Source: Polyangiaceae bacterium
GTDB lineage: Bacteria; Myxococcota_A; Polyangia; Polyangiales; Polyangiaceae
NCBI GenBank assembly: GCA_033763455.1
Contig: JANRKO010000028.1
Coordinates: 96,001 to 160,000 of the forward strand
Length of the DNA: 64,000 bases
Direction of reading: 5' to 3'
In this document: one piece after another, positions 14,577 through 55,331 of the stretch
Layout of the letters: each line of letters begins with the position of its first letter
Position numbering within the stretch: the first letter of the stretch is position 1
Made by a program: the position numbers and the translations under genes
The notes under the pieces: model-generated
What the model saw: only the letters and a program-made list of their open reading frames with translations
Told to the model about the DNA's origin: nothing
Databases searched by the model: none

Positions 14577-14592
14577 TGGCACGCGCCCTGCT
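14577..14592 (+). promoter_or_regulatory. sigma54-type promoter for ku/ligD operon
   Basis: TGGCAC-GCGCC-CTGCT; ATG 14605 is 14 nt after the -12 C. Confidence 0.75.
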
Positions 14593-14604
14593 TGAGAGAG
14601 CCTC

Positions 14605-16341
14605 ATGGCTCGAGCGATTTGGACCGGCAGTGTAGGGTTTGCGGCAGGCTTACCCGGTGAGGCATTCTTGCTGGATGGCGAGCTGGTGGCACTCAATGAA
14701 CGAGGGGTGAGTGACTTTCAGGTGCTTCAGCATTCACTGAAGGTTAAAAGCGATAGCGAGCTCTGCTATTTCGCCTTCGATCTATTGCACTTGAATGGAA
14801 CAAATACCCGCGGTTTCTCTCTCCTCCAACGCAAGGAGCTTCTAAGAGCTTTGCTCGCCAAGCGGGGTTCGAAAAACGCACCGCTCATCCGCTTGAGCGA
14901 CCACGTTACGGGAGGTGGGCCTGAGTTCTTCTTGAAGACCTGCGAAGAGAAGCTCGAAGGCATTATCAGCAAACGCGCGCTTAGCCCTTACCGCTCCGGC
15001 CGCGGTCGGGACTGGCTGAAAGTCAAATGCCTGATGCGCCAGGAGTTGGTGGTTGTTGGGTTCACCGAGCCTAAAGGTGGGCGCAGCCACCTGGGTGCAC
15101 TACTCCTTGGCGTGTGGAGGGGTGCGGAGCTTGTGTACGTGGGCCGCGTGGGAACGGGGTTCAGTGAGCGGACGCTCCTAGAGCTCCACAGCCGCCTCTC
15201 GCATCTCGTCATAGAAAAGTCTGCCGTGAAGCACCAACTGCCGCGAGCTCAATTGCGCGAAGTTAGCTGGGTTCAGCCGAAGCTTGTAGCCGAAGTGGGT
15301 TTTACGGGGTTTACGTCTGACGGCCTGCTTCGACACCCGACATTTGTCGGCCTCCGGGAAGACAAAGAGGCGGAAGAAGTTCATCTGGAAACAGCGGCTA
15401 CAAACGGCCCCAATTCCGCCGCAGGCCTGGGCGCCTCCCCGCCCAAACGGCCCGAGAAGGCGGCCGTCTCAAGCGATACGGGCTACGTCATCACCCATCC
15501 TGATAAGCTCCTTTATCACGACGCTAAGATTACCAAGCGCGAACTGCTGGATTACTACGGCCTTGTTGGAGAGCGCATGCTGCCACATCTGGCTCGGCGG
15601 CCTCTTACACTGGTGCGATGTCCCAACGGGCAAGGGCAACCGTGTTTCTTCCAGAAACACTTCGCCCAAGGCGCGCCACCCGGAGTTCACTCCATCTCGG
15701 GTAGCGATGGCAACGAGCCGTATCCCTTTGTCGAAAGTGAGGAAGGCCTGTTTGGGCTCGCGCAACTGGGAGCTCTAGAAATCCACACGTGGGGATCACG
15801 TGTGGATAATCTCGAACATCCAGACATCCTGGTTTTCGATTTGGATCCTGATCCGGAGCTCCCCTTCCAAGCGGTGATAGAAGCGGCGAAGGAATTGCGA
15901 GCCGTGTTCGCTACGGCCAAGCTCGAAAGCTTCGTGAAAACCACTGGCGGTAAAGGGCTACACGTGTGTCTACCTGTGGCGCCGAGCTTAGATTGGAAAG
16001 AAGCCAAGACCTTTTCGGGGGAGGTTGCCCACGCGCTTGTTGCTCAGTCACCCAAGCGTTACGTCGCGACCCAATCGAAATCCAAACGTACGGGCAAGAT
16101 ATTCATTGATTATCTGCGAAATGGGCGTGGCGCCACATTCGTCGCCCCATATTCTACGAGGGCGAGGCCAAACGCGCCTGTGGCTATGCCGCTTGAGTGG
16201 GAAGAGCTAACGCCCAAGCTGCGTGCCGATCAATTCACTCTGAGAAATGTGAGAGAGCGTCTTAAAGAAGCGGACCCGTTTGCACGTCTCTTTCAGTGTA
16301 AGCAGCAGTTGCCCGAAGTGAAGAGAGGTTCCCGAGCGTGA
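14605..16341 (+). CDS. ligD: Ku(1-12)::LigD chimera: truncated ATP-dependent ligase domain + OB fold + intact primase-polymerase domain
   Basis: Starts MARAIWTGSVGF (Ku-type N-terminus), then LLDGELV, YFAFDLL, EGIISKR, WLKVK, GRVGTGF, LRHPTF. Pol motifs VFDLDP, KTTGGKGLHV, IFIDYLRN present. Ligase motif I (KxDG) absent. Confidence 0.85.
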   Translation: MARAIWTGSVGFAAGLPGEAFLLDGELVALNERGVSDFQVLQHSLKVKSDSELCYFAFDLLHLNGTNTRGFSLLQRKELLRALLAKRGSKNAPLIRLSDHVTGGGPEFFLKTCEEKLEGIISKRALSPYRSGRGRDWLKVKCLMRQELVVVGFTEPKGGRSHLGALLLGVWRGAELVYVGRVGTGFSERTLLELHSRLSHLVIEKSAVKHQLPRAQLREVSWVQPKLVAEVGFTGFTSDGLLRHPTFVGLREDKEAEEVHLETAATNGPNSAAGLGASPPKRPEKAAVSSDTGYVITHPDKLLYHDAKITKRELLDYYGLVGERMLPHLARRPLTLVRCPNGQGQPCFFQKHFAQGAPPGVHSISGSDGNEPYPFVESEEGLFGLAQLGALEIHTWGSRVDNLEHPDILVFDLDPDPELPFQAVIEAAKELRAVFATAKLESFVKTTGGKGLHVCLPVAPSLDWKEAKTFSGEVAHALVAQSPKRYVATQSKSKRTGKIFIDYLRNGRGATFVAPYSTRARPNAPVAMPLEWEELTPKLRADQFTLRNVRERLKEADPFARLFQCKQQLPEVKRGSRA

Positions 16342-17498
16342 ACGTTGTCTTTCTCTCGCCTGGTTTCCCGCCCACTGCGGCGTCCTTCTGTGCTGCTCTA
16401 AAAGCGAAGGGCGTGAAGGTGCTTGGCATTGGGGACATGCCGCTCGCACCCGGTAGCCGAGAAGCGGCGGCTTTAGCGGACTATGTGTTGGAGCCCGACA
16501 TGGGCAACTATCAGATGCTCAAGGCTGCCGTCGAGCGCCTCTGCGAACGCCACGGCCCAATCGATCGCATCGAATCCGATGGTGAGCATTGGCTTGAGGC
16601 AGGATCCCGCCTGCGGGATGACTTTGACGTTCCAGGCATCCGCAGTGCTGAGCTCCGCCGCCAGCGGAGTAAGCTCGGTATGGCTGAAATATTTTCAAGC
16701 GCGGGCATCGCGACGCCGCCGGGCGTCCGGGCAGAATCACCCGAAGAGGTGCGTGATTTCGCAAGAAAATACGAATTCCCGCTCGTGTTTAAGCCAGATA
16801 CGGGTTCAGGCGCGGCGGATACCTTCAGCGTCGAGAACGGCAGGGAGCTGGAGCGGGCTTTGGCACAAGTGCGCGAAGGTTACGTGGTGCAGCCTTTTGT
16901 TCACGGTGACATCGTAACCTACGATGGCTTAGCCGATCGCGATGGGAACGTTGTCTTTTACACGTCGCACACCTACGACACGGGCATCATGCAGGTGCGG
17001 CTTGGGCAGCTGGACGGTTACTACTATTCCCTGCGCGAAGTTCCGGCTGCTCTGGAGCAAGTGGGCCGGGCCGCGGTGCGGGCATTCGGTGTCCGAGAGC
17101 GCTTTTTTCACGTGGAATTTTTCGCCCAGCCCAACGGTAGCTACGTGGCGCTCGAGATGAATTTGAGGCCGCCGGGTGGTTTTACCACAGACATGATGAA
17201 TGCCGCATGCGAGTTTGACGTGTATGCACTCTGGGCGGGCGTTTTGACGGGCGATGTCCACGGCGCCGTTGCGTACGAACGCAAGTTTCACACGGCTCAC
17301 GCTGGGCGGCGACGTGAGCGCAACTACCGAGTGAGCCACAGCACACTCGTTGAGACACTTGGCCCCATGTTGATTGCGTCTCGACCCATCCCCGCGGCAT
17401 TTGCCGTCACGATGGGAGATTGGATGTACCTCTTGCGAGATGCGGACCTTCCTGTACTAAAGCGCACCATCGCCTTGGTGCACGCCCTCGTCTCATGA
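16338..17498 (+). CDS. ATP-grasp domain protein
   Basis: FLSPGFP, KPDTGSGA, FFHVEFF, LEMNLRPPGG; GTGA overlap with ligD stop. Confidence 0.85.
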   Translation: MNVVFLSPGFPPTAASFCAALKAKGVKVLGIGDMPLAPGSREAAALADYVLEPDMGNYQMLKAAVERLCERHGPIDRIESDGEHWLEAGSRLRDDFDVPGIRSAELRRQRSKLGMAEIFSSAGIATPPGVRAESPEEVRDFARKYEFPLVFKPDTGSGAADTFSVENGRELERALAQVREGYVVQPFVHGDIVTYDGLADRDGNVVFYTSHTYDTGIMQVRLGQLDGYYYSLREVPAALEQVGRAAVRAFGVRERFFHVEFFAQPNGSYVALEMNLRPPGGFTTDMMNAACEFDVYALWAGVLTGDVHGAVAYERKFHTAHAGRRRERNYRVSHSTLVETLGPMLIASRPIPAAFAVTMGDWMYLLRDADLPVLKRTIALVHALVS

Positions 17499-18367
17499 GC
17501 TTTCGGTATTTCAGACCGTGGATGACTCCACACGCTGTCATTCTTTGCGCCGCCGCGTGGGCGTGTGCCGGCACAACGAGCAAGGAGCAAGCACTCACGG
17601 CGTCCGAACGCTTGGCAAGCGCTGAGTTCGCTTCCTCCGGCAGCGTGCAGGCGCAACCTGAGATGAATGGGGCACGTGAGCCCGCGGACATTCGTGAGGC
17701 CTTTTCAGAGTTGCCTGTTCCCGGGTTTTTGAACGCCGTCTTCTATACTCCCCCGGGTAGCGGTGTGCACCCGCTGGTGGTTGCCAGCCACGGCGCCGGT
17801 GGGGCACCGCGTGATGAATGCGAATACTGGTTGAAGCTTACGCGCCAGCAAGCCTTCCTGCTTTGCTTGCGTGGAGTCCCATTTGGCAAAGCCCACCCGA
17901 CGGCATTCTTTTACCGAAACCATCTCGAGTTAGGCCGGGAACTCAAGGCGGCGCTGGAAGCGGCAAAGGCCCGCCAGGGACGGAGATTTGCTCAGAAGTC
18001 CGGGATTTATGCCGGATTTTCGCAAGGCGCGATCATGGCTGTCGGAATGATCCCGCCCTTCGGTAGTGACCTGCCGTACCTGGTTCTGATCGAAGGCGGG
18101 TACCAATATTGGAGTGTGGCGCACGCACGGCAGTTCGCAAAAGCAGGCGGCAAGCGTGTGCTCATTGCATGTGGCACGGAGGTTTGTGCGAAGCGCGGGG
18201 CCGAAGCTGTGGTGTGGTTGAGGCAGGGAGGGCTGGAGGCGCGCATGGCATACGCTGAGGGTGCAGGGCACACTCCATTCGGCCAAGTCGAAGAGGAAGT
18301 GGCCCGTGCGCTGCCCTGGGTGGTGAACGGAGCCGGGTGGTCGGGGCACGCTTTCACACGTCCTTAG
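17495..18367 (+). CDS. Alpha/beta-hydrolase-fold probable lipoprotein
   Basis: ATGA overlap; AAWAC lipobox-like; SHGAGG, GFSQG nucleophile elbow, GAGH. Confidence 0.7.
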   Translation: MSFRYFRPWMTPHAVILCAAAWACAGTTSKEQALTASERLASAEFASSGSVQAQPEMNGAREPADIREAFSELPVPGFLNAVFYTPPGSGVHPLVVASHGAGGAPRDECEYWLKLTRQQAFLLCLRGVPFGKAHPTAFFYRNHLELGRELKAALEAAKARQGRRFAQKSGIYAGFSQGAIMAVGMIPPFGSDLPYLVLIEGGYQYWSVAHARQFAKAGGKRVLIACGTEVCAKRGAEAVVWLRQGGLEARMAYAEGAGHTPFGQVEEEVARALPWVVNGAGWSGHAFTRP

Positions 18368-18441
18368 CCAGCGAGGTCATCTGCCTCGCGCTCGGGGCGT
18401 GGTGCTTGGGAAGGCATGCGCATGGTGGCGCAACACTGTGC

Positions 18442-18457
18442 TGGCGCAAAACATGCA
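18442..18457 (+). promoter_or_regulatory. sigma54-type promoter
   Basis: TGGCGC-AAAAC-ATGCA; ATG 18470 is 14 nt after the -12 C. Confidence 0.65.
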
Positions 18458-18469
18458 TAAGTTCTTGGC

Positions 18470-19570
18470 ATGGAAGCTATGCATAACACTAAAGTCAGGT
18501 ATGCAGTTGTCGGGGCCGGGAACATCGCACAAGTTGCGGTGTTGCCCGCCTTCGCGCATGCGGAGGAAAACTCGGAGTTGGTTGCGCTGATTTCGAGCGA
18601 TGCCAACAAGCGCGATGAGCTTTGTGAGAAGTACAACCTTCAGCTAGCGGGCGATTACACACAGCTCGAAAAGGTTTTCGAGAAGGGAAAGATTGACGCG
18701 GTGTATATTGCCACACCCAATACGCTCCACAGGGAGCACACCCTCCGAGCGGCGGCGCGGGGTGTGCACGTGCTTTGCGAGAAACCGCTCGCGCCGACTG
18801 TGGCCGCCTGCGATGCGATGGCGAGAGCGTGCTCCAAGAACGGCGTGAAGCTGATGGTCGCTTATCGCCTCCATTTCGAGGAGGCGACACTGACGGCACT
18901 GAACTTGATTCACCAAGGAAAAATAGGCGAAGTTCGTGTTTTCGATTCCGTCTTCAGCCACGTGGTTCGCCCCGGGGACATTCGCTTACGCCCAGAAACC
19001 GGAGGCGGCGCCTGCCTGGACCTCGGTGTCTACTGCATCAATGCTGCGCGCCACGTTTTTCACGAGGAGCCGATTTGGGTATCAGCTGTAACCCACGAAA
19101 AGGATGGGGTCGATGACACCACGACGGCAGTTATGCGTTTCCCGAACGGTGGTGTGGCGCAATTTACCGTGAGCAACAGCTTGGCCTCCACCTCAAGCTA
19201 CCGAGTTCTCGGCACCCAGGGGGATTTGCGATTGGAGCCCGCTTATGAGTACGCCGAAGGCTTGGAGCAATACCTTACAACCAACGAGAAGACTCGGCAC
19301 ACATCCTTCGCGAGTCGCGATCAGTTCGCGCCGCAGCTGATTCATTTCTCAGACGCTATCTTAAATGGTACCGAACCCAGGCCTTCTGCCGCTGAGGGTC
19401 TCGCTGATATTCGGGTCGTCGAGGCAATCCTTGAATCGGCTAAGTTGGGCAGGCCCGTCGAGCTTCCGCTACGCAAGCCGCGGTATCAGCCGAGTCAAGA
19501 TCAAGAAATGAGGAAGCCGGCCACAAAGAAACAAGAGCCCATAAGTGCTCCATCCCCCAGCCTGAAATAG
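18470..19570 (+). CDS. Gfo/Idh/MocA oxidoreductase (glucose-fructose oxidoreductase-like)
   Basis: VVGAGNIA, DAVYIATPN..H, HVLCEKP, GGGACLDLGVY. Confidence 0.92.
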   Translation: MEAMHNTKVRYAVVGAGNIAQVAVLPAFAHAEENSELVALISSDANKRDELCEKYNLQLAGDYTQLEKVFEKGKIDAVYIATPNTLHREHTLRAAARGVHVLCEKPLAPTVAACDAMARACSKNGVKLMVAYRLHFEEATLTALNLIHQGKIGEVRVFDSVFSHVVRPGDIRLRPETGGGACLDLGVYCINAARHVFHEEPIWVSAVTHEKDGVDDTTTAVMRFPNGGVAQFTVSNSLASTSSYRVLGTQGDLRLEPAYEYAEGLEQYLTTNEKTRHTSFASRDQFAPQLIHFSDAILNGTEPRPSAAEGLADIRVVEAILESAKLGRPVELPLRKPRYQPSQDQEMRKPATKKQEPISAPSPSLK

Positions 19571-19573
19571 CAT

Positions 19574-19753
19574 TCAGCCTGCTCCCTTAGATTGGTCGCT
19601 ACGCCCACACGTGCACTCCTCCGGTGGTGCCCGATGGACGGCACACGTGGGCTCGTGGATCCCTTCGCGCACACAAGCTTCGCACGCGCAATTGAATGCA
19701 GCGTCGTCAGAGTTGGGTTTAACAGGATCGGGCTTCGGTGAGTTGGTTGCCAT
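19574..19753 (-). CDS. Small Cys/His-rich hypothetical protein (59 aa)
   Basis: CACEAC..HEPTCAVH..ECTC; fills the gap downstream of the 20042 gene on the same strand. Confidence 0.5.
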   Translation of the reverse strand: MATNSPKPDPVKPNSDDAAFNCACEACVREGIHEPTCAVHRAPPEECTCGRSDQSKGAG

Positions 19754-19781
19754 GGGTTCGTGCCGGTTGGAGGACTGTGAG

Positions 19782-20042
19782 TCACCGAGCGTCGCGAGGG
19801 CTCGTAAGTAACCCATTGGCCGCACGCGACGACGAACTGAAGTACAAGACCGCGCCGACCACCACGCCAGTTATCAAAACCAAGCAGCAGATCCAAATGG
19901 CGCTTTGCAAACCATCGCTCGCCGCGCGCCGCATTTTTCCACGCTCCTCGGCCTCAGCCTGAGTGGGGTGCGGATGAGCAGGACTCGGCTTAAGAGCATC
20001 CTGCGCCGGTGCCGACGGGCGAAGATCGGAAATGTTGGGCAT
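19782..20042 (-). CDS. Small single-pass membrane protein
   Basis: One hydrophobic helix (IWICCLVLITGVVVGAVLYF); ATG is 13 nt after a sigma54-type element. Confidence 0.6.
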   Translation of the reverse strand: MPNISDLRPSAPAQDALKPSPAHPHPTQAEAEERGKMRRAASDGLQSAIWICCLVLITGVVVGAVLYFSSSSRAANGLLTSPRDAR

Positions 20043-20053
20043 GCAACGCAAGA

Positions 20054-20069
20054 TGCACGTTGTATGCCT
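20054..20069 (-). promoter_or_regulatory. sigma54-type promoter
   Basis: Minus strand AGGCAT-ACAAC-GTGCA. Confidence 0.6.
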
Positions 20070-20283
20070 GTAGCTATGCGCTGTGCGCCCCGGGCCGAGT
20101 GATTGCCAATGCGGGCGACTAGGGAAGGGCAGTGCGAGACGTGTTCACGGAGTCATAGCGTTAATCTAGAAGTGGTGGATTTTGAACTTCGCTACCTCTA
20201 CCATGGTGAAGGGATGCCACGCGCGTGACAAAACGCCACAGGGCGTGGAGCCGAAGCCACCCGTACGGAGTGACACTGGTCGA

Positions 20284-20328
20284 TCACGGGCAACAGCTCA
20301 CGGGCAACCACGCACCGTCACGGCGCAC
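20284..20328. repeat. Short direct repeats TCACGGGCAAC x2 plus degenerate third copy
   Basis: Copies at 20284, 20298 and 20318 (TCACGGCGCAC). Confidence 0.65.
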
Positions 20329-20414
20329 CGATAAAGTGATGATCTGGGAGGCCTCCAATTAACTTGGAGGTAGGAATTGTGGGCCGGCGTAATGCGGCGG
20401 ACCGCACGTGATGA

Positions 20415-24462: not shown

Positions 24463-24478
24463 TGCAACATTAAGGCCA
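24463..24478 (-). promoter_or_regulatory. sigma54-type promoter for HDO gene
   Basis: Minus strand TGGCCT-TAATG-TTGCA; ATG 24451 is 13 nt after the -12 C. Confidence 0.7.
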
Positions 24479-25431: not shown

Positions 25432-25710
25432 TTAGCCTTTTGTCGAAACGCGATTGTTCGACCGCGCGTGCGTAATGGCGATCCAGGCGCCGGCTACGCC
25501 TGACAGGAGGAGGAGCCCGTTGGTGATGGTGAAAATCCAGTTTCCGAGTAGGGCGCTGTAAAGGGTGAATCCCAAGGATGCGGCGGTTTGGCCGACGAAG
25601 AGCCATTTGGTCACACCTGCGTGGGCAGGATCGCGCCACTGCTTTCGAACCTGCGCCAGGATAGTTACAAGGAGAATCACCGAGCTCGACCAACCAAGTA
25701 CATCGACCAC
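25432..25710 (-). CDS. PQ-loop/SemiSWEET-like 3-TM protein
   Basis: Three hydrophobic helices; QVRKQW..GVTKWLF..YSALLGNWIFTITN. Confidence 0.75.
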   Translation of the reverse strand: MVDVLGWSSSVILLVTILAQVRKQWRDPAHAGVTKWLFVGQTAASLGFTLYSALLGNWIFTITNGLLLLSGVAGAWIAITHARSNNRVSTKG

Positions 25711-25721
25711 CGCGCGTCTTC

Positions 25722-25737
25722 AGCAATTGCCGTGCCG
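25722..25737 (-). promoter_or_regulatory. sigma54-type promoter (leftward of a divergent pair)
   Basis: Minus strand CGGCAC-GGCAA-TTGCT; GTG 25710 is 13 nt after the -12 C. Confidence 0.8.
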
Positions 25738-25746
25738 TGCAGCCGA

Positions 25747-25762
25747 CGGCACGGCACGTGCA
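25747..25762 (+). promoter_or_regulatory. sigma54-type promoter (rightward of a divergent pair)
   Basis: CGGCAC-GGCAC-GTGCA; in-frame GTG 25774 is 13 nt after the -12 C. Confidence 0.7.
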
Positions 25763-25773
25763 GTGCTAGATGG

Positions 25774-27003
25774 GTGTTTCCTCCCGCGCTTGGCACCTAT
25801 ATTGGCGAGAATTACCGCATTGTCGCCGAGCTGGGGCACGGAGCCATGGGGATTGTGTATGCGGCGCTGGACGAAGCGTTGGAGCGCAAGGTCGCCATCA
25901 AGCTGGTCCGGCCGGCATTCAACGCTGAGAATTTCCGCGAGATGTTTCGACGCGAAGCCCGCGCGCTCGCTCTTGTTGGGCACCCGAATGTGGTCGGAAT
26001 CCATGCTTTCGGAGAGCACGAAGGAGCTCCCTTTATCGTGATGGAGCTTATCGAAGGTGAGAGCCTGGATCGGTGGCAAGTCCGGCAAACTCCCCACCCC
26101 AACCTGGATGCCGCGCTTCACATTCTGGACCAAGTGTGTCTCGGAGTGGGCGCCATCCATGCGGCCTCAACGATTCATCGTGACATCAAGCCTAGCAATA
26201 TCCTGCTGGATCACGATCTTGGGGTGCACGTCTCGGACTTTGGACTCGCTGTGCCTTCTGTTGATGGCGAGTACATGAACGAAGTGGCGGGCACTCCAGG
26301 CTACATTGCGCCGGAAGTTAACTTCGGAAAAGTAAATGAAAGTGCCGCGACGGTCCAAAGTGACGTCTACTCCCTCGGATGCGTAGCGTACGAGCTCCTC
26401 ACAGGGATCCCGCCTTTTTCAGCCGATCACGTCTTTGCCCTCGCCGTCGCACACGCTTTGACACCCGTTCCCACGCCCACGAGCATCCGTCAGGACTTGC
26501 CACCCGCATTTGATGCGGTGCTTGAGCGCGCACTAGCCAAAGACCCCAAAGAACGCACCCCCAGCGTGGAGGCGCTCCGACGCGAGCTTCTACAAGCTCG
26601 AACAAATAGTCTGGACCCCGTACGCATACTGGTGGGCGAGGACGATGCTGACTTTCGTGAGCTCCTTTCCGTAGTCTTGGAGAAGGAATTTCCAAGTGCT
26701 GAAGTGGAGTGCGTTGCTGACGGGTGGAACGTATTACAAGCGTACGATCGCAAGCCAGCATCGGTTCTGATTGTGGATTTGCAAATGCCGATGCTCGATG
26801 GCATGGCCGTGACGGAGCGGGTGCGCAAACGGACGAACGCGCAGTCTGTCGCGATTATTGTGCTCACCGGCGCGGGTGGGCCGCGCGAATGGCAGCTCTT
26901 GGCGGCGCTCGGCGCGGATCGGTTTTTGGTAAAGCCCGTGAACATGGACGACCTGGTCAGCACCATCCGTCGCGCGGCGCACGAACGCGCCACCTCACGC
27001 TAG
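25774..27003 (+). CDS. Hanks-type Ser/Thr kinase fused to C-terminal receiver domain
   Basis: LGHGAMGIVY, VAIK, HRDIKPSN, DFG, GTPGYIAPE; REC: ILVGEDD, DLQMP, LT, VKP. Confidence 0.9.
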   Translation: MFPPALGTYIGENYRIVAELGHGAMGIVYAALDEALERKVAIKLVRPAFNAENFREMFRREARALALVGHPNVVGIHAFGEHEGAPFIVMELIEGESLDRWQVRQTPHPNLDAALHILDQVCLGVGAIHAASTIHRDIKPSNILLDHDLGVHVSDFGLAVPSVDGEYMNEVAGTPGYIAPEVNFGKVNESAATVQSDVYSLGCVAYELLTGIPPFSADHVFALAVAHALTPVPTPTSIRQDLPPAFDAVLERALAKDPKERTPSVEALRRELLQARTNSLDPVRILVGEDDADFRELLSVVLEKEFPSAEVECVADGWNVLQAYDRKPASVLIVDLQMPMLDGMAVTERVRKRTNAQSVAIIVLTGAGGPREWQLLAALGADRFLVKPVNMDDLVSTIRRAAHERATSR

Positions 27004-29979: not shown

Positions 29980-29995
29980 TGCAATTCGCGGACCA
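29980..29995 (-). promoter_or_regulatory. sigma54-type promoter for YtxH gene
   Basis: Minus strand TGGTCC-GCGAA-TTGCA. Confidence 0.6.
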
Positions 29996-30009
29996 CAAGC
30001 CCACTCGGC

Positions 30010-30025
30010 TGGCACAGGGAGTGCA
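30010..30025 (+). promoter_or_regulatory. sigma54-type promoter
   Basis: TGGCAC-AGGGA-GTGCA; ATG 30038 is 14 nt after the -12 C. Confidence 0.7.
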
Positions 30026-30037: not shown

Positions 30038-30301
30038 ATGACCCAACCACCCTCAATGGCTCCACCCAACCGGACGCACGAACGCTCCGTGGCCTATAAC
30101 CCCGTGAGCGATACAGAAGGGGAATTCAAGGTAGCGCATGCCCACTTCAAGGAAACGCTGCGTGGGGTTCTGCGGGCATCAGAAATTGCCGTTCGACACG
30201 TGTGGCAGCACGGTAAGCCGTTGCTTTTTGGCGTGGCAATTCTGACGTCACCGCACCAACCCAGGTTCCTCGGCTTGATGGAGGAGCTCGGTTACCAATG
30301 A
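30038..30301 (+). pseudogene. Truncated or chimeric paralogue of the 55297-55680 gene
   Basis: HFKETLR..VRHVWQHGKPLLFGVAILT matches HFSETLR..VRQVWQSGKPVLLGAAILT, then similarity stops mid TM helix. Confidence 0.55.
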
Positions 30302-30745: not shown

Positions 30746-32083
30746 ATGCACGCTAATGTCACAGGGCCGCCTCGCCTTCAACTCGTGGTGACGAGGGTGT
30801 CCACGTCTGAGGCCGATCACCCCAAGCCCTTGCCGGGAGAGATCTTCTTTGCCGGACAGATCTTAGACGACAAGTATGAGTTGCAGGCACACATAGCGAC
30901 GGGCGGGCAAGCGGTGGTCTGGCGAGCCAGGCACCTTTTCTTAGGTAGGCTAGTGGTCATTAAGGTCCTGCGCCCAGACCTGGCCAACAACGCCAATATT
31001 GTTGAACGCTTTGTTGACGAGGCGCGCGTGCTCGCGGCTCTGGAAAGCGAGCACATTGCACGCATCCTCGACTACGGCCTCTTGGAGCACGGCTTACCCT
31101 TCATGGTGATGGAGTACCTAGAGGGGAGGGACCTGAGGTACCTCCTCTGCGAGGCTGGGCCTTTGCCGGTTAATTGGGCCACATTCTTCATTGCCCAGGC
31201 GTGCGAGGGGCTCGCAGAGGCCCACAGGAATGGGATCATCCATCGCGACATAAAGCCCGAAAATCTATTCGTGTGCGAGCGCACAAAGCGCGTGAAACTT
31301 CTAGACTTTGGCATAGCGATTGCCGTGAATCAGGAGCGCCATCTCACCCATCCAGGCGAGCCCGTCGGATCTCCCAGTTACATGGCGCCAGAACAGTTGC
31401 GGACGCAGGATATCGACCTTCGTGCCGACATTTGGGCGCTAGGTGCTGTGTTGCACGAGCTCATCTCGGGGGAGTGCGCCTTTGACGGAGCGTCGTTAGC
31501 GCAGATCTGCACTGCTGTTCTCACCGCTGCACCCCGCCGATTGAGCGAGTTCCGAGCGGCGGTTCCCGCGGGTCTCCAGGAGGTGGTAGACAGGTGTTTG
31601 TCCAAGGACAGGGCCCTGCGCTTCGGAAACACTCGGGAACTTGCGGCCGAGCTTACCGTGTTTTGCCCCGAGCTAGTGAGCGCTCAGGCATCGGCTATCG
31701 CCCTTTGGGGTGAAGCGCCAGGCCTCCTTTCGGAGGCAGCTGATCCGCAGATCGAGTTAGAGGTGGAATGCGACAGTTCTGAAGCTGATCCAGAGATCGA
31801 GTTGGGGGTTGAGTCCGACGTAGTAGAAGTAGGTTTAGAGGGCTTGGAAGACGCCCCCCGCGATCCCTTCGAACATCGAAAGAACTCGATTCGCGATATT
31901 GACCTGGATTTCAGCGATGCCGCGACAAAAGGTGCGCTATTGGTTCGAGAGCCTAAAGCGCGTTGGGACCTCTTTGTGCTCATCGTAGTGGTTCTGGCGC
32001 TTGGCGTATTCGTACTTCACGAGTCGCCCAGGTGGCTCCCGAAGTTCGAAGAGTGGGCGGGAAACCTTGGGCTTCTCAGCTAA
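30746..32083 (+). CDS. Membrane-anchored Ser/Thr protein kinase (start uncertain)
   Basis: IATGGQAVVW, VVIK, HRDIKPEN, DFG, GSPSYMAPE; acidic linker; C-terminal TM. Confidence 0.9.
   Translation: MHANVTGPPRLQLVVTRVSTSEADHPKPLPGEIFFAGQILDDKYELQAHIATGGQAVVWRARHLFLGRLVVIKVLRPDLANNANIVERFVDEARVLAALESEHIARILDYGLLEHGLPFMVMEYLEGRDLRYLLCEAGPLPVNWATFFIAQACEGLAEAHRNGIIHRDIKPENLFVCERTKRVKLLDFGIAIAVNQERHLTHPGEPVGSPSYMAPEQLRTQDIDLRADIWALGAVLHELISGECAFDGASLAQICTAVLTAAPRRLSEFRAAVPAGLQEVVDRCLSKDRALRFGNTRELAAELTVFCPELVSAQASAIALWGEAPGLLSEAADPQIELEVECDSSEADPEIELGVESDVVEVGLEGLEDAPRDPFEHRKNSIRDIDLDFSDAATKGALLVREPKARWDLFVLIVVVLALGVFVLHESPRWLPKFEEWAGNLGLLS
31738..31820 (+). repeat. 45-nt imperfect coding tandem duplication
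   Basis: ADPQIELEVECD / ADPEIELGVESD. Confidence 0.7.
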
Positions 32084-42772: not shown

Positions 42773-42788
42773 CGGCACGCGCTGTGCA
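42773..42788 (+). promoter_or_regulatory. sigma54-type promoter
   Basis: CGGCAC-GCGCT-GTGCA. Confidence 0.7.
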
Positions 42789-42857
42789 CCGACTCGAAGC
42801 TATGGAAAAATCGGAATTACGCATTCCCCCTATCGGGGCGCGGTTGGGAGGCGAGGC

Positions 42858-43361
42858 GTGACCTTGCAACGGCTATTAATGGGCTGCCTTCTTGGACTGA
42901 TCGCTACGGTGCCAATGAGTGCCGTCATGCTGGGCGGGAAGCGTTTGTTGAGGCCGGGGGATCGGGGGCCGCTTCCTCCGCAGCAAATCACGCACGAGGT
43001 TTTGGAGCGGGTGCGCGCTGGCGATCCGCCGGAACATCGGTCCATGGTGCCGGTCGCTGCCGTCCTTTTGGCTGAATCCGCGCTCACTCGTCCGCTGTCA
43101 CGGCTCCTTCATTTCGGGTACGGGGCCGCGATGGGCGCCACCTATGTGGAACTTTGCCACGGGCTCCCGAACACACGCAGCGGGATCGCCTTTGGGCTCG
43201 GCGTGTGGACCGCGAGCTATTGTGGATGGCTCCCCGCTCTGAGGTTCTCGTCCGCCGCAAAGGCACAGAGTGCGGCGCGTAACACGTTGATGATTGCGGC
43301 ACACGTCACCTGGGGCGCCGCGGCTGGCGCACTCGGTCGCGCCTGGCGCCGCACATTATAA
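42858..43361 (+). CDS. Membrane protein (DUF1440-like)
   Basis: GTG with GGAGG RBS; ATVPMS, LPPQQIT, LHFGYGAAMG, FGLGVW..SY.GW.P, AHVTWG. Confidence 0.7.
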   Translation: MTLQRLLMGCLLGLIATVPMSAVMLGGKRLLRPGDRGPLPPQQITHEVLERVRAGDPPEHRSMVPVAAVLLAESALTRPLSRLLHFGYGAAMGATYVELCHGLPNTRSGIAFGLGVWTASYCGWLPALRFSSAAKAQSAARNTLMIAAHVTWGAAAGALGRAWRRTL

Positions 43362-43392: not shown

Positions 43393-43408
43393 CGGCACGT
43401 ATATTGCT
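43393..43408 (+). promoter_or_regulatory. sigma54-type promoter
   Basis: CGGCAC-GTATA-TTGCT. Confidence 0.8.
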
Positions 43409-48907: not shown

Positions 48908-48923
48908 TGGCACACGCCTTGCT
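48908..48923 (+). promoter_or_regulatory. sigma54-type promoter
   Basis: TGGCAC-ACGCC-TTGCT, consensus match. Confidence 0.82.
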
Positions 48924-48981
48924 GGGGGAGGAGTAATGCGTCGCTTGTGGTCGATGCTTCCCAACATTAGGAGAATGAGAA

Positions 48982-49206
48982 ATGAAGATTGGATGGTATT
49001 TGGCAGTTCTTAGTCTATCTATGTGCGCTGCGTGTGGCGGAGGCCAGAAAGAGCCTGAAGATGCGGATGGTGCCGCTGAAAGGGCCGGCGAACGCATCGA
49101 TACCGCAGCGGAGAAGGCGGGCTCCGAAGCGGAGGAAGCCACCGAAGATGTTGGCGAAGCGGTGGAAGATGCAGGTGATGATATTCAGGAAAAATCTAAC
49201 GAGTAA
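48982..49206 (+). CDS. Small acidic lipoprotein (LEA/YtxH-like helical repeats)
   Basis: AGGAG RBS, CAAC lipobox, AERAGERID..VGEAVEDAGD. Confidence 0.8.
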   Translation: MKIGWYLAVLSLSMCAACGGGQKEPEDADGAAERAGERIDTAAEKAGSEAEEATEDVGEAVEDAGDDIQEKSNE

Positions 49207-49613: not shown

Positions 49614-49672
49614 GCTTGCCTTCTTGCCATCGACCCAAGGCGGTCGCTTCACAGGGGGGTGTGATTCGTTGA

Positions 49673-49698
49673 GCCACCCCGGGCAAACCCGGGGTGGC
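49673..49698. terminator. Perfect GC hairpin upstream of acnA
   Basis: GCCACCCCGGG-CAAA-CCCGGGGTGGC; no U-tract. Confidence 0.45.
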
Positions 49699-49799
49699 AT
49701 TAGATGAGATCTCGGGTGGCAAATTGCCCCGCGGAAGAGTGCTTTCGGATTCTGACCTAGCCTGGCCGTTGTGCTCGTGGGATTTTGCTTCAACCGACA

Positions 49800-52487
49800 A
49801 TGACCATATCTTCCCACGACTCGTTTTCGACGTTCCGACAACTGCAGGTGCCGGCTGGCACCCGCGGCTACTTCAGCTTACCAGCGCTTGCTGAAAGTGT
49901 GCGGGTGGATCTCGCACGCCTCCCATACTGTCTTCGCGTTTTGCTTGAGAACTTGCTCCGATGCGAGGATGGAAAATCCGTGACGCGTCAAGATATTCTG
50001 GCGCTCGCGGCCTGGGAACCGCAGGGCAACGCCCATGGTGAGATCGCCTTTCACCCGGCACGCGTGGTGCTTCAGGATTTTACGGGCGTCCCCGTAATCG
50101 TAGATCTTGCAGCGTTGCGTGATGCCATGGCGGAAATGGGTGGGGATCCCTCAAAGATCAACCCGCTGTTTCCGCTTGAGCTAGTGATCGATCACTCAGT
50201 GCAAGTTGATTCCTACGGCAGCTTAGATTCTCTATTGGTAAATACACGCAAGGAGTACGAACGGAACACCGAGCGTTATACGTTGTTGCGCTGGGCGCAG
50301 AATGCCTTCAACAACCTGAAGGTGGTGCCCCCGCAAACAGGTATTGTGCACCAGGTGAACTTGGAGCATTTGGCGCGGGTAGTCTTTGACTCTGAGGGCC
50401 TGCTCTACCCGGACACACTGGTCGGCACGGACAGCCATACCACCATGATCAACGGGCTTGGCGTGCTGGGGTGGGGTGTCGGCGGTATTGAAGCGGAGGC
50501 TGCCATGCTTGGGCAGCCCATCAGCATATTGATTCCGGAAGTTGTGGGGTTTCGTTTGCGTGGCAAGTTACCGCCGGGTAGTACCGCTACGGACCTCGTG
50601 CTGACCATTACGCGTCTGTTGCGCGATGTGGGTGTGGTGGAAAAGTTTGTCGAATTCTTTGGCGAAGGCCTGGATGATTTGCCGCTCGCGGATCGCGCTA
50701 CGATTAGTAACATGAGCCCAGAATTCGGCTCAACTTGCGCCATTTTTCCGATTGATGAGCAGACGCTCCGCTACCTTCGCCTTACCGGAAGAACGGATGA
50801 AGAGGTGGCGGTTATTGAGGCGTACACGCGCGCGCAAGGCTTCTTCCGAACCGCAGATGCTGTGGAGCCTGTATTCACGCAGGTGCTTGAGCTCGATCTT
50901 GGCACTGTCGTTCCTAGCTTAGCGGGTCCGCGGCGGCCGGAAGATAAAGTGGCTTTGAGTGCCGCCAAAGCAACTTGGGAGTCAGAGCTTGCTACGCTCA
51001 TCTCCAGCGCTCGCGCTGAACCAGCCGCCGTCGCTTTTGTTAACGCATCCAACCAAACCTTTGCGTTGAGTCACGGCAGCATCGTAATAGCCGCCATCAC
51101 ATCCTGCACCAATACGTCCAATCCTGCCGTCATGATGGCAGCCGGCCTCTTAGCACGAAATGCTCGTGCACACGGCCTAGAAGTAAAACCCTGGGTGAAG
51201 ACAAGCTTGGCGCCCGGCTCGAAGGTGGTAACCCGTTACCTAGAAGATGCCGGCGTGCTTCAAGATCTGGAGGCTTTGCGGTTTAACGTGGTGGGGTACG
51301 GCTGTACTACGTGTATTGGAAATAGTGGCCCTCTAGACGCACCGATTTCAGAAGCCGTGAACGCTCACAATCTTGTGGTGGTAAGCGTGCTCAGCGGGAA
51401 CCGCAATTTTGAAGGTCGCATCAGCCCTGATGTGCGCGCTAATTTCCTTGCGAGCCCTCCTTTGGTAGTGGCCTACGCCTTGGTGGGTCGGATGGACGTG
51501 GACCTGTTGACGGAGCCGTTGGGAGTGGATAGGAGTGGCAATAACGTCTTCCTGAGGGACATTTGGCCGTCGCCAGAGGAGGTGCAACGAGCAGTTCAGG
51601 CCCACGTGCAGGTCAGCCTGTACCGGGAGGAATATGCGAGTGTCTTTGAAGGAGATGCGGTCTGGAAAGCTCTGCCGGTTCCTCGCGAGCGCCTTTTCGC
51701 GTGGGATGCGGGGAGCACCTACGTGAGGCGTCCGAGTTTTCTGGAAGGCATTCCTCGTGAGCCTGCACCACTTGATGACATCCGGGGCGCGCGCGTTCTC
51801 GCCAAGCTCGGGGACTCGGTAACCACCGATCATATCTCCCCAGCCGGGAATATCTCCAAGGCATCGCCCGCGGGCGCTTACCTGCAAATGCATGGCGTGA
51901 AAGTTGCGGACTTTAATTCCTACGGTGCTCGTCGAGGCAACCACGAGGTCATGGTGCGCGGCACGTTTGCCAACGTGCGGCTGCGAAATCAGCTAGCCCC
52001 TGGAACGGAGGGCGGCCTCACTCGTCTCCTTCCTGACGGAGGCATCACATCACTCTTCGACGCCGCAGAGGCCTATCAAGCCAGCGGAACGCCCCTCTTG
52101 GTCCTGGCCGGCAAAGATTACGGCACCGGCTCGTCGCGCGATTGGGCGGCCAAAGGTACACGGCTTTTGGGGGTGAAAGCTGTCCTCGCAGAATCCTTCG
52201 AGCGCATTCACCGCAGCAACTTGATCGGCATGGGGGTCTTGCCTCTGCAATTTTTGCCCGGCCAGAGTGCTTTTACGCTAGGCCTCTCCGGTGAGGAGCG
52301 TTTCGATATTCAAGGCATCGCGAGTGCGCTTAGCCTCTCCAAGCTGCTGGATGTCGCCGCAACGGCCTCCGATGGACAGGTAAAACATTTTCGGGTCGTG
52401 TGTCGCATCGATACGCTGGTGGAGCTGGACTACTACTCGCATGGCGGCATTTTGCCCTTCGTTTTGCGCCAACTGCTGAGGGCGTGA
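49800..52487 (+). CDS. acnA: Aconitate hydratase A
   Basis: LQDFTGVP, IDHSVQVD, GTDSHT, AITSCTNTSNP, GYGCTTCIGNSG, TTDHISPAG, GSSRDWAAKG. Confidence 0.97.
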   Translation: MTISSHDSFSTFRQLQVPAGTRGYFSLPALAESVRVDLARLPYCLRVLLENLLRCEDGKSVTRQDILALAAWEPQGNAHGEIAFHPARVVLQDFTGVPVIVDLAALRDAMAEMGGDPSKINPLFPLELVIDHSVQVDSYGSLDSLLVNTRKEYERNTERYTLLRWAQNAFNNLKVVPPQTGIVHQVNLEHLARVVFDSEGLLYPDTLVGTDSHTTMINGLGVLGWGVGGIEAEAAMLGQPISILIPEVVGFRLRGKLPPGSTATDLVLTITRLLRDVGVVEKFVEFFGEGLDDLPLADRATISNMSPEFGSTCAIFPIDEQTLRYLRLTGRTDEEVAVIEAYTRAQGFFRTADAVEPVFTQVLELDLGTVVPSLAGPRRPEDKVALSAAKATWESELATLISSARAEPAAVAFVNASNQTFALSHGSIVIAAITSCTNTSNPAVMMAAGLLARNARAHGLEVKPWVKTSLAPGSKVVTRYLEDAGVLQDLEALRFNVVGYGCTTCIGNSGPLDAPISEAVNAHNLVVVSVLSGNRNFEGRISPDVRANFLASPPLVVAYALVGRMDVDLLTEPLGVDRSGNNVFLRDIWPSPEEVQRAVQAHVQVSLYREEYASVFEGDAVWKALPVPRERLFAWDAGSTYVRRPSFLEGIPREPAPLDDIRGARVLAKLGDSVTTDHISPAGNISKASPAGAYLQMHGVKVADFNSYGARRGNHEVMVRGTFANVRLRNQLAPGTEGGLTRLLPDGGITSLFDAAEAYQASGTPLLVLAGKDYGTGSSRDWAAKGTRLLGVKAVLAESFERIHRSNLIGMGVLPLQFLPGQSAFTLGLSGEERFDIQGIASALSLSKLLDVAATASDGQVKHFRVVCRIDTLVELDYYSHGGILPFVLRQLLRA

Positions 52488-52557
52488 CGCCCAACGTGGC
52501 CCCCTTCGGAGCCGGACGCCCCCCCTCGATTTCATGGAGTAATTGGGTGCGTGCAGG

Positions 52558-52710
52558 CTAAAGCGATGTCCGCCGACCGGTAATCAAGTTGATCAGCACC
52601 ACCACAATCGCCACTACCAATAACAGGTGAACGAACCCACCCATGGTATAGGAAGTGACCAGCCCGAGTGCCCAGAGCACCAACAGAATAACAGCAATTG
52701 TCCACAACAT
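52558..52710 (-). CDS. lmo0937-family small membrane protein (50 aa)
   Basis: Below the ORF-track cutoff; MLWTIAVILLVLWALGLVTSYTMGGFVHLLLVVAIVVVLINLITGRRTSL; AAGGA RBS. Confidence 0.9.
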   Translation of the reverse strand: MLWTIAVILLVLWALGLVTSYTMGGFVHLLLVVAIVVVLINLITGRRTSL

Positions 52711-52781
52711 GAGTATTTCCTTGAGTTTGCCTGAGAGGGGTTAGCCCCGGTTGCTTCCTTGTGGGGAGGTAAGTGCCATCC

Positions 52782-52797
52782 AGCAAGCATCGTGCCG
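52782..52797 (-). promoter_or_regulatory. sigma54-type promoter
   Basis: Minus strand CGGCAC-GATGC-TTGCT. Confidence 0.8.
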
Positions 52798-52953
52798 CTG
52801 GTGGAACAGGGCAGATGCGGTGTTCAGACGCCATGCCAACGCGGGATTCGCGTCCCACCCAAAGCCGGGAGACCATCACCGCGGTGCCATTGCGCAACGG
52901 CGCAACTTGCCCCACGTGTGGCAATTCACACCGTTCTTCGATTCTCTTTTTGG

Positions 52954-54606
52954 TCAAGCTATCTGAGGCACAGCCGCGAGAACTTCTAGCAACTGATGCG
53001 CATCCACTGGCTTCACCAGATGCGCCTCAAATCCGGCCGCAGCGCTCCTTGCTTTGTCGCTCGTTTGACCGTAGCCGGTAAGCGCGACCATTCGGCAGCC
53101 GGTACAGCTTGGGAGTGCGTGGAGCTTTTTCGCAAGCGTGTAGCCGTCCATGACGGGCAAACCTATGTCGAGTACCGCGAACTCCGGTCGAAATTCACCA
53201 GCGAGTTCGAGAGCCGCGAGTGGTTCTGTGGCGACCGCGACCTCGTGACCAAAAGAGCGCAAAATGTCCCCAAGCACTTCGGCCGCGTCGACGTTGTCGT
53301 CAACCACGAGGATTCGCTTCGAAATACCAGGCTGGGAGCGTGCCACCTCTGCCCTAGGGATTTGAGAACTGGTAGAGCCCGCGCGAGCAGGTAGACGAAC
53401 CCGAAATTCACTACCCAGACCCAGGCCAGCACTCACTGCACTCACGCTGCCCCCATGAAGCTGAACTAGATTCTTAACGAGAGCTAGGCCAACGCCCAGG
53501 CCCCCTCCTGGTCGCCCTTGGCCGCGAGGTGCCTGCGCAAACATGTCGAAGATGTTCGGAAGAATATCGGGCGCGATGCCTATGCCGTCGTCCTTTACGC
53601 AGAGCACGATCTCATCTTTCTCTCGAAACGCGGAGAGCTCGATGTGGCCGCCTGGGTGCGTATAGCGTGCGGCGTTGGTTAACAGATTAGCGACAACTTG
53701 GGATATTCGCACGGCATCCACGCGAACCCGTAGCCCTGTCCGCGGGACGTGCACTAAAAGCGTACTGCCTCGATTTTCTAGCAGAAAGCTAGCCATCTCG
53801 ATCGCTTCGGCGACCACCGTCCCAAGCTCCACCCATTCTTTACGGAGCTGGACTTTGCCGCGGGTGATTTTGGAGACATCCAAAAGGTCGTCTACCAGGC
53901 GCACCAGGTGCGTCACATGCCGTTCGATAAGCGCAAGCTCACGAGTGAGCTTGCCAGAATTTCGGAGCTTCACGAGTCCAATCGCCGTCACGATTGGAGA
54001 AAGTGGGTTGCGGAGCTCGTGACCCAACATAGCAAAGAATTCGTCCTTCGCGTTGTTGGCGGCCTCAAGGTCGCGGAGCAATCGCTCTCGTTCTGAGTAA
54101 GAGCGCTCCACAACGTGTCGGGCGCTTGCGGGGTCACTGATTTCGAGGCCGGCGATCATCAGCCCACTCACTACCCCCTCCTGCTGGATGGGCTCGACGT
54201 TGAAGCAAAATAGCGCCTCTTGGGGCTGGCCCTCTCCCGTGCGGGTCAAACTCATCCGGAATTCTGAAGTCGAAAAAGGATTCCCCGTTCGATACACCTC
54301 GCTCAATATCCCAACAAATTCACTGCCTTCCAATTCAGGAAACACTGCCGAAAAAGGCTTGCCAACAATGTCTCTCCTTCCAGCGATCTGGCAGTACCGC
54401 TCATTGGCTAACTCAAACGTGAGGTTATCTCCAGATAGCACCGCCACCGCGAATGGTGCTCTGTGCAGCAGGCGGTCGAGCGCATCGGCACGAGTGCTAT
54501 CCGTTGGAGGCGATGAGCTTGACGATGGTTTGGCGGGCACGGAAGTAAGATGAGACGATTTGGAAGCAACGTTCAAGGTTTTCTCAGGCTCAATGTCATG
54601 GGGCAA
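52954..54606 (-). CDS. Hybrid histidine kinase PAS-HisKA-HATPase-REC
   Basis: LGHELRNPL, NLLTNAARYT, GGLGVGL, ILVVDDN, LDIGLP. Confidence 0.92.
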   Translation of the reverse strand: MPHDIEPEKTLNVASKSSHLTSVPAKPSSSSSPPTDSTRADALDRLLHRAPFAVAVLSGDNLTFELANERYCQIAGRRDIVGKPFSAVFPELEGSEFVGILSEVYRTGNPFSTSEFRMSLTRTGEGQPQEALFCFNVEPIQQEGVVSGLMIAGLEISDPASARHVVERSYSERERLLRDLEAANNAKDEFFAMLGHELRNPLSPIVTAIGLVKLRNSGKLTRELALIERHVTHLVRLVDDLLDVSKITRGKVQLRKEWVELGTVVAEAIEMASFLLENRGSTLLVHVPRTGLRVRVDAVRISQVVANLLTNAARYTHPGGHIELSAFREKDEIVLCVKDDGIGIAPDILPNIFDMFAQAPRGQGRPGGGLGVGLALVKNLVQLHGGSVSAVSAGLGLGSEFRVRLPARAGSTSSQIPRAEVARSQPGISKRILVVDDNVDAAEVLGDILRSFGHEVAVATEPLAALELAGEFRPEFAVLDIGLPVMDGYTLAKKLHALPSCTGCRMVALTGYGQTSDKARSAAAGFEAHLVKPVDAHQLLEVLAAVPQIA

Positions 54607-54711
54607 ATTGCCTCAGTGTGGTGGTCTTGTGGTCTGCAGTTCCTCAACGCTCTTGCGCTGATGAGGGGTCTCGCGGCCAAACAACGCGGGAAGGTCATCC
54701 TGCAGATCGTG

Positions 54712-54727
54712 TGCAATTGCCGGACCA
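54712..54727 (-). promoter_or_regulatory. sigma54-type promoter for the kinase
   Basis: Minus strand TGGTCC-GGCAA-TTGCA. Confidence 0.6.
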
Positions 54728-54769
54728 GCCATGAAGTGTCGCGCACTTGGCGCTTTGCCGGCGTCACCT

Positions 54770-54877
54770 CAGGCAGCGCGTGCACAAGGTGGATGCAGCA
54801 GCGAACGCAAAGTCCAAGCAGAGTGAGCGCGAGGTGGATGCAGCAGCGAACGCATGTCCAGGCAGCGCGTTTGCAAG
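54770..54877. repeat. About 45-nt imperfect tandem repeat (2.4 copies)
   Basis: Exact core AGGTGGATGCAGCAGCGAACGCA at 54787 and 54832; CAGGCAGCGCGT at 54770 and 54859. Confidence 0.85.
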
Positions 54878-54905
54878 ATCCCGGTGGCGCGTAGTCAAGC
54901 GGGCT

Positions 54906-54921
54906 TGGCATGAGGGGTGCA
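54906..54921 (+). promoter_or_regulatory. sigma54-type promoter
   Basis: TGGCAT-GAGGG-GTGCA; in-frame GTG 54933 is 13 nt after the -12 C. Confidence 0.7.
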
Positions 54922-54932
54922 AGCACTTAGCC

Positions 54933-55331
54933 GTGACTCCCCACGACTCAAGTGTGACCAGTGCACCGGCAGAGGTCATTCACGGCGCGCTTGACCTGCT
55001 ACGCGCCGAAATCAAAGTGGGGGTGGCCCACGCACGAGCCTTCGGAGTCCACGCCGGAATCGCTGTGGTGTTGGCCCTATTCAGTGCCGTCGTGCTGCAA
55101 GCTGCGGTCATTCTAACGGTGCTCTCCCCGCTTTGGTTTGATCATCTGCCGGTATCGAGAGCGTTGTTGGCTCTCGCAGCCCCGTACGTTGCAGCGGTTT
55201 TGGCGGCCGGGGGAGCGTACTTGGTCTGGCGGAAGGCATGCGAACCACCCCCTTTCCGCGATATTCACCACCCACATTTGCAAGTGAGAAACAACGATGA
55301 CGAACGAGCCCGGAAATCAGAAGCCCTTTGA
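54933..55331 (+). CDS. YqjE/holin-like two-TM membrane protein
   Basis: ALDLLRAEIK amphipathic helix followed by two TM helices. Confidence 0.6.
   Translation: MTPHDSSVTSAPAEVIHGALDLLRAEIKVGVAHARAFGVHAGIAVVLALFSAVVLQAAVILTVLSPLWFDHLPVSRALLALAAPYVAAVLAAGGAYLVWRKACEPPPFRDIHHPHLQVRNNDDERARKSEAL

Follow-up and report, generated by a model that had tools for sequence, protein, structure and literature searches.

Can a sigma-54 promoter yield an mRNA that begins at its own start codon? The question is raised by a 64,000-nucleotide (nt) stretch of DNA from a Polyangiaceae bacterium (contig C28, positions 96001-160000; the window hereafter), for which a preliminary description had placed the start codons of eight genes 13 or 14 nt behind the conserved C of a -24/-12 motif. 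We call this distance, counted from that C to the first base of the start codon, d. All ten distances listed there, two near cases included, were reproduced exactly. The genome (G000) has 6.56 Mb and 59% GC and is 94% complete; comparison genomes carry similar labels (G001, G002, G022, G064 and so on). We think it likely that this bacterium makes leaderless or near-leaderless mRNAs from predicted sigma-54 promoters, with 5' ends placed by promoter geometry.

The genome encodes sigma-54 and its activators. RpoN is present in a single copy, 49% identical to that of Myxococcus xanthus and 58-95% identical to those within the order, and ends in a segment that we take to be an RpoN box. These identities, together with gene content such as DUF1552/DUF1592 pairs and many Ser/Thr kinases, point to Myxococcota and probably to the class Polyangia. 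Sigma-54 activator domains give 29 matches at E<1e-30. The motifs themselves have GG and GC, an exact 10-nt spacer and the TGGCAC/TTGC consensus of sigma-54 promoters. The 16S tail carries a normal anti-Shine-Dalgarno sequence, and other genes show the normal Shine-Dalgarno (SD) peak 4-11 nt upstream.

Start codons peak at one distance from sigma-54-type motifs

To survey the genome, 4597 genes were called from dicodon statistics alone, so that no start was picked by motif spacing. Intergenic GG-N10-GC motifs were ranked by consensus score, and those scoring at least 11 (n=166) were counted as strong. A narrow position weight matrix only restated its seed and was given up for the consensus score. 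ATG stands at d=13-14 behind 35 of the 166 strong motifs, 14 at d=13 and 21 at d=14, while about 5 are expected from the 2.46 per position found over d=20-80 (Poisson P=1.3e-18). There is one ATG each at d=11 and d=12. The peak that the preliminary description had proposed to look for in a genome-wide histogram is therefore found at 13-14 nt; it persists at every score threshold from 8 to 13 and has a shoulder at 15-17. Plain pattern counts, made without gene calls or start selection, also peak there.

The peak depends on the promoter's own geometry. Wrong-spacer patterns are flat, with 1, 2, 1 and 1 ATGs at d=13-14 for GG-GC spacers of 8, 9, 11 and 12 nt (n=61, 61, 49 and 49), and the exact 10-nt spacer gives 166 strong intergenic motifs against 49-61 for the wrong ones. 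Tight spacing had been offered as support for the promoter calls, and it is indeed not due to chance. Among triplets at d=13-14, only ATG has an excess of its own (44 against 8.6 expected; GTG, 22 against 12.2), and no TTG excess was seen behind the motifs of this genome. When wrong-spacer counts are subtracted, about 111 true motifs remain at a score of at least 11, with about 34 ATG and 12 GTG at d=13-14, AUG being preferred and GUG tolerated. At a score of at least 9 there are about 190 true motifs, about 67 of them with a start at d=13-14. Leaderless-type promoters thus appear, by these counts, to make up 35-40% of the sigma-54 promoters of G000, or roughly 45-70 genes.

The codons at this distance behave as gene starts. 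ATG opens at least 60 codons in 29 of 35 cases at d=13-14 and in 85 of 174 elsewhere (P=2e-4); for GTG the counts are 13 of 15 and 89 of 214 (P=8e-4). SD pairing before these starts has a median of -2.1 kcal/mol, no different from the background (-2.5 kcal/mol, P=0.80); reference starts pair more strongly (-3.7 kcal/mol, P=0.01). Pairing of -7 kcal/mol or stronger precedes 3 of the 35, the same 9% as in the background, and 18% of reference starts.

Six of eight start codons in the window are supported independently

Without using the spacing, homologues and coding score support the starts at 14605, 18470, 24451, 25710, 25774 and 54933, and in these six of the eight window genes conservation and frame length mark the 5'-proximal codon as the true start. 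Orthologues came from three genomes of the same genus or, for 18470, from 100 relatives. Across them the motif, the distance and the start are kept while the intervening bases vary.

On the plus strand, the sigma-54-type motif at 14577..14591 (score 12) lies at d=14 from ATG 14605. The frame at 14605..16341 joins 12 codons of a Ku N-terminus, which sets the start, in frame to a 5'-truncated LigD. It is an apparent deletion fusion: LigD has lost its phosphoesterase domain along with a portion of the ligase domain, and about 1.7 kb is missing compared with G001, where an intact Ku with a motif at d=14 is followed by a full LigD. Because that intact Ku has the same arrangement, the 14605 start is secure even though a deletion produced the gene. 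Contig C33 encodes another, more distant homologue of Ku (30%). Also on the plus strand, the motif at 18442..18456 (score 11, d=14) precedes a predicted leaderless Gfo/Idh/MocA oxidoreductase (18470..19570), with d=13 in G001 and d=14 in G022.

The minus-strand motif at 24464..24478 (d=13), a variant kept in all three same-genus orthologues, precedes an iron-containing redox enzyme (PF14518; 23513..24451, minus strand) that is predicted to be leaderless and whose three orthologues have ATG at d=15, 14 and 15. Two motifs then lie back to back. One, at 25723..25737 on the minus strand (score 12, d=13), faces a 92-amino-acid (aa) membrane protein with a GTG start (25432..25710, minus strand). This predicted leaderless gene is supported by one of three close homologues: the closest orthologue (G002, 78%) has ATG at d=13 and two more distant homologues lack the motif. 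The other, at 25747..25761 on the plus strand (score 11, d=13), precedes a Ser/Thr kinase-receiver protein, also GTG-started and predicted leaderless (25774..27003), whose start is chosen by coding score alone as well and whose three orthologues have GTG at d=14, 14 and 13. Back-to-back motifs for divergent genes recur at 29981-30024 and 5088-5118 as well as at 25710-25774; in the 25723/25761 pair only 9 nt separate the motifs, with no intergenic room for activator sites. Last among the six, a plus-strand motif at 54906..54920 (score 11, d=13) precedes a holin-superfamily-III-like membrane protein (PF07332; 54933..55331) with a GTG start, again predicted to be leaderless. Its three orthologues have GTG at d=14, 13 and 14.

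The remaining two starts are candidates. A weaker minus-strand motif at 20055..20069 (score 9, d=13) precedes an 86-aa open reading frame (ORF) with one hydrophobic stretch (19782..20042, minus strand). It has no Pfam match, and a search of 150 relatives gave no orthologue and five weak partial matches only. The plus-strand motif at 30010..30024 (score 12, d=14) precedes an 87-aa ORF (30038..30301, plus strand), a paralogue of the gene near 55333. The only homologues that five genomes yielded sit behind the holin-like gene and belong to that paralogue.

The spacing peak extends across the class

We counted one fixed pattern, unfiltered for genes, over 61 genomes, namely G000 and 60 relatives of its order. 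ATG was found 143 times at d=10+11, 100 times at d=12, 275 times at d=13 (by subtraction), 743 times at d=14 and 219 times at d=20+21. The total for d=13+14 is 1018, and elsewhere each position holds about 70-110. In 57 of the 61 genomes d=13-14 lies above both two-position controls; in four it does not. A phylum sample of 250 genomes included 48 from the same class, which gave 678 matches against 169 in the control, with 43 of 48 higher. The other 202 gave 684 against 455; this weak excess contains a false match that recurs in coding sequence. No peak was seen in 20 genomes from other phyla (42 versus 80), which a single primer scan had supplied as a chance set. Three Myxococcus genomes had 1, 3 and 3 pattern matches, these being counts without a distance control. 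Between 41 and 99 matches at d=13-14 occur in G027, G194, G249, G304 and G117, the last from outside the class, in counts that do not distinguish genes from repeats.

Transcription would begin at or next to the start codon

Motifs placed 13-14 bases ahead of start codons make it likely that the mRNAs begin on the AUG or beside it. A pyrimidine followed by a purine is the usual signature of a start site. It is described as such in the part of PMC12403871 covered here. Over the 61 genomes, a pyrimidine occupies -1 of the ATG in 83% of d=13-14 matches. A purine is found there in 171 of 1018, whereas a hand count at d=12 gave 46 of 100 (P=2e-10). When 150 of the 171 listed matches were counted by hand and scaled, the purine share came to about 19% for d=13 and 16% for d=14.

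For calibration, M. xanthus Cappable-seq starts (Table S2, PMC8844925) were placed on the sequence of strain AM003. They fall 15 nt (actA), 15 nt (mrpC) and 16 nt (dmxB) after the C in a set of only three promoters from another class and a different strain, of which mrpC has a variant motif and dmxB a predicted one. In each, the start is the first purine at or beyond 13; positions 13-14 are pyrimidines, and purines at 10-12 are skipped. The actA distances on AM003 are identical to the published coordinates. A multicopy repeat in G064 that carries a similar motif has its conserved edge at d=13 in 13 copies and d=14 in 11. Given the -1 pyrimidine, the M. xanthus offsets and this repeat edge, +1 is probably the A of AUG. 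Applied to 50 cases at d=13-14 in G000, a rule of first purine at or beyond 13 leaves 43 without a leader and seven with a 1-nt leader. In this phylum the sigma-54 offset seems to be 1-2 nt longer than the 12-13 nt that the preliminary description took as established, given an ATG mode of 14 and the M. xanthus values.

A textbook start at 11-13 nt, leaving leaders of 1-3 nt, is the strongest competitor. It would keep the usual -24/-12 geometry, M. xanthus often has leaders of 1-5 nt, the bases at -2 and -3 of the ATG are frequently G (0.46 and 0.54), and the shoulder at d=15-17 fits it. Such leaders are possible because the calibration is small and because primer extension placed the mrpC start 2 nt further upstream (PMC8844925, in the part covered here). 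However, the pyrimidine tracks the ATG and not a fixed distance, being as frequent at d=13 as at d=14 to within a few matches in a hundred; there is no ATG excess at d=12, and the M. xanthus starts lie further out still. We therefore hold 1-3 nt leaders to be a tentative possibility. The choice shifts the exact +1 and leaves translation SD-free either way, as there is no room for an SD sequence under a leader of zero or of 1-3 nt alike.

In the mechanism that we propose, an enhancer-binding ATPase would open the complex of RNA polymerase and sigma-54, and transcription would start from the first purine at least 13 bases after the conserved C, with a mode of 14 and a pyrimidine at -1. Where that purine is the A of AUG or the G of GUG, the mRNA would be leaderless and its 5'-terminal codon would be engaged by 70S ribosomes without an intermediate step. 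The remaining sigma-54 promoters of G000 would serve ordinary leadered, SD-led genes. The most specific form of this proposal holds that the polymerase starts 13-14 nt after the C (a -26/-14 geometry), that about 40% of the promoters are strictly leaderless, and that this is a lineage-wide design mainly for exported proteins and lipoproteins. We would put it evenly between right and wrong.

Near cases and leadered genes

Two near cases in the preliminary description did not hold up. At 42773..42861 (plus strand), the ATG at 42802 (d=15) opens only 19 codons, and the DUF1440-like gene is better started at GTG 42858, which has a strong SD (-10.2 kcal/mol). At 5104..5136 (plus strand), the spacing to 5134 (d=16) is not conserved, the orthologues having TTG at d=24 and 18. 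On the minus strand at 5088, an Omp85/POTRA gene has GTG at d=13 in G001 and G002. In G000 this GTG is missing, and in-frame starts then follow at d=42 and 66.

Genes with more distant promoters were said to have clear SD motifs. This is so for CsbD (-8.9 kcal/mol; 8959..9043, plus strand, motif 68 nt before the start) and for the gene at 48982 (-7.3 kcal/mol; 48908..49013, plus strand, motif 60 nt before the start), while YtxH (-5.8 kcal/mol) and the lmo0937-like DUF5670 gene (-5.2 kcal/mol) have only modest ones. Two further matches were absent from the preliminary description. Behind the motif at 48922, an ATG at d=14 (48936) opens a 25-codon ORF (48936-49013) that overlaps the SD-led start at 48982. 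This is a possible leaderless upstream ORF, and it was not seen in the G001 orthologue. The motif at 43407 has a GTG at d=14 that opens a 70-codon ORF. Since neither of these two codons is the conserved start of its gene, some single matches are due to chance. The motif at 31323 was discarded as a false match inside a kinase gene.

Elsewhere in G000, a gene that is presumably of the FlgB family (C73:53004, d=16) and three pilin-like genes (C43:45601, C43:46418 and C92:148339; d=15, 16 and 14) adjoin sigma-54-type motifs.

Alternative explanations

The earlier proposal of sigma-54-driven leaderless or near-leaderless mRNAs is supported by the genome- and class-wide peak, the orthologues, the open frames, the lack of SD pairing and the -1 pyrimidine, all of them features of sequence. 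Besides the small calibration and the mrpC primer extension, several observations weigh against it. Fewer than 60 codons are opened by 6 of the 35 ATG and 2 of the 15 GTG cases at d=13-14. The related genomes are not independent samples, and in many of them a coding stretch, which we take to be CysRS, produces a false match at d=13. In G064, a metagenome-assembled genome labelled Polyangiaceae, most of the 65 matches come from one repeat family, with dozens of GGA-rich copies of about 100-140 nt, often at contig ends. Each copy has a strong sigma-54-type motif and then a 4-codon ORF at the start of the element, so not every pattern match counted in the relatives is a gene. The element could be a multicopy small RNA or repeat; five loci gave no Rfam family. 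With the repeat dominating and an RpoN 34% identical to that of G000 (M. xanthus, 49%), G064 was set aside as support for the class. The arrangement is also labile. Among ten homologues of the 18470 oxidoreductase, eight lack the d=13-14 spacing: two have it, one has d=11, one has d=18 with an SD-like leader, and six are without. Ku was dropped as a class-wide test, the motif being absent at all six Ku-like loci of other genera and a seventh locus having no start codon in the scanned range.

Sigma-54 might bind these sites and remain silent, poised or repressive over an upstream leadered transcript, or another protein might read the motif. E. coli sigma-54 is known to occupy sites without shown transcription. 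Many such sites are reported in the part of PMC4591121 covered here. No activator sites were identified for the present promoters, no enhancer or IHF search having been made, and just 9 nt lie between the two motifs of the divergent pair at 25723/25761. Silent binding predicts no peak 2 nt wide, no sharp edge at 13, no -1 pyrimidine and no loss of SD pairing, and the exact 10-nt spacer is needed; we consider it improbable.

About equally improbable is that the ATG reflects an initiation-site preference or part of a non-coding repeat, with the genes starting further downstream. The motif-led many-copy element of G064 with its 4-codon ORF, the short ORFs from 48936 and 42802, and a second in-frame ATG at d=37-38 in two of the 54933 orthologues are what such a reading would expect. 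Yet the long frames are far above chance, the in-frame GTG or ATG is conserved, with a GTG-ATG swap at 25710, and other A-starting triplets have no comparable enrichment. In addition, the codon is directly followed by lipoprotein signals or by Ku, PEP-synthase, CBS or pilin domains.

That the spacing is an artefact of choosing starts in a GC-rich genome may hold for single genes, as four starts (20042 and 30038 among them) had been chosen partly by spacing and the near cases fail, but it is refuted for the class by a peak that is present without start selection and in 57 of 61 genomes, and absent with wrong spacers and in the 20 genomes of other phyla, and we give it almost no weight.

Stress genes and exported proteins

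The window is a stress-gene island with catalase, CsbD, YtxH, BON, YflT, DUF1003, hemerythrin and Ku/LigD genes. It has 21 strong intergenic sigma-54 motifs where 3.3 are expected, about six times the genome density. This density, a property of the sequence, suggests a general stress regulon run by sigma-54. The further suggestion that leaderless mRNAs are favoured under stress was not upheld. Their share is 7 of 19 strong motifs in the island and 35 of 147 elsewhere (P=0.26). With a looser score it is 7 of 21 against 43 of 322 (P=0.02), a value that we discount because false motifs dilute the outside set. The island's classic stress genes, CsbD, YtxH, hemerythrin and the transglycosylase-associated gene, are leadered. 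Outside the window, 14 of 32 cases have a Pfam match, none to a general-stress family of the CsbD/YtxH type, and a stress bias was rejected; the matches include PEP synthase, CBS, RadC, LuxR, kinase, pilin and protease-inhibitor domains. Lipoprotein-like signals are enriched by a crude rule (9 of 35 versus 131 of 1376 reference genes, P=0.005).

Relation to known promoters and meaning

Known sigma-54 promoters (E. coli, PMC4591121; M. xanthus actA, mrpC, katB and ahpC, PMC8844925 and PMC12754779; each in the part covered here) share the GG-N10-GC motif and its strict spacing, and their hosts likewise encode RpoN and activators. They differ in that here the start codon sits where transcription should begin. 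The M. xanthus sigma-54 examples that we placed have leaders of 56-213 nt, unlike the G000 set, and the offset is 12 in known sigma-54 promoters compared with a deduced 13-14 here. Leaderless mRNAs are described from sigma-70-type -10 promoters in the covered parts of reports on Bradyrhizobium japonicum (extended -10, PMC4842269), Sinorhizobium meliloti (PMC3616915) and M. xanthus pexR (PMC12754779) and of a review (PMC9031893). Like these, the G000 genes lack an SD, prefer AUG over GUG and have their start codon on or close to the predicted 5' end; what sets the G000 genes apart is an activator-dependent class of promoter. The -10-type excess in G000 itself, with stop-like boxes removed, is weaker and broader, 6-9 nt upstream. 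A first TANNNT histogram with peaks at 6, 9 and 12 was an artefact of in-frame TAA/TAG stops close to the starts.

Among 51 M. xanthus genes with a listed start in parts 1-5 and 7 of 11 of Table S2B (PMC8844925), the strongest start lies 0-5 nt before the codon in 18 by hand count of the rows covered, and the phylum thus handles near-leaderless mRNAs. The covered main text of that paper does not contain the word leaderless. Loci were matched by gene length and chosen by eye, a procedure that was ambiguous for many and left 6 of 36 unmatched. Nine short-leader starts were placed on the sequence; a TANNNT box lies 6-7 nt ahead of five, and a sigma-54 motif scoring at least 8 precedes none of them. 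As short leaders are common in the phylum, what the class adds would be their use at sigma-54 promoters.

In a search that left most subscription journals outside, no published description of sigma-54 or RpoN paired with leaderless mRNAs was found. The covered parts of PMC4641369, PMC11704786, PMC11841059 and PMC12316311 hold no sigma-54 offset or leader data, and that of supplement 3 of PMC11980068 no start coordinates. The pattern is real and spans the class, and the pairing of the two mechanisms has probably gone undescribed. Known parts would be combined here in a new way, with no new machine involved.

Leaderless translation is known from -10-type promoters, and the usual picture of a sigma-54 promoter includes an ordinary leader; both views would be extended by an entire class that joins the two. 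Such a class would supply a simple rule for placing gene starts and signal peptides among bacteria that include many natural-product producers, where many starts have no SD to guide their annotation. It would also provide thousands of natural markers for the sigma-54 start position, which suggest an offset 1-2 nt beyond the textbook value. If the proposal is true, enhancer-gated transcription in these bacteria would feed straight into 70S initiation.

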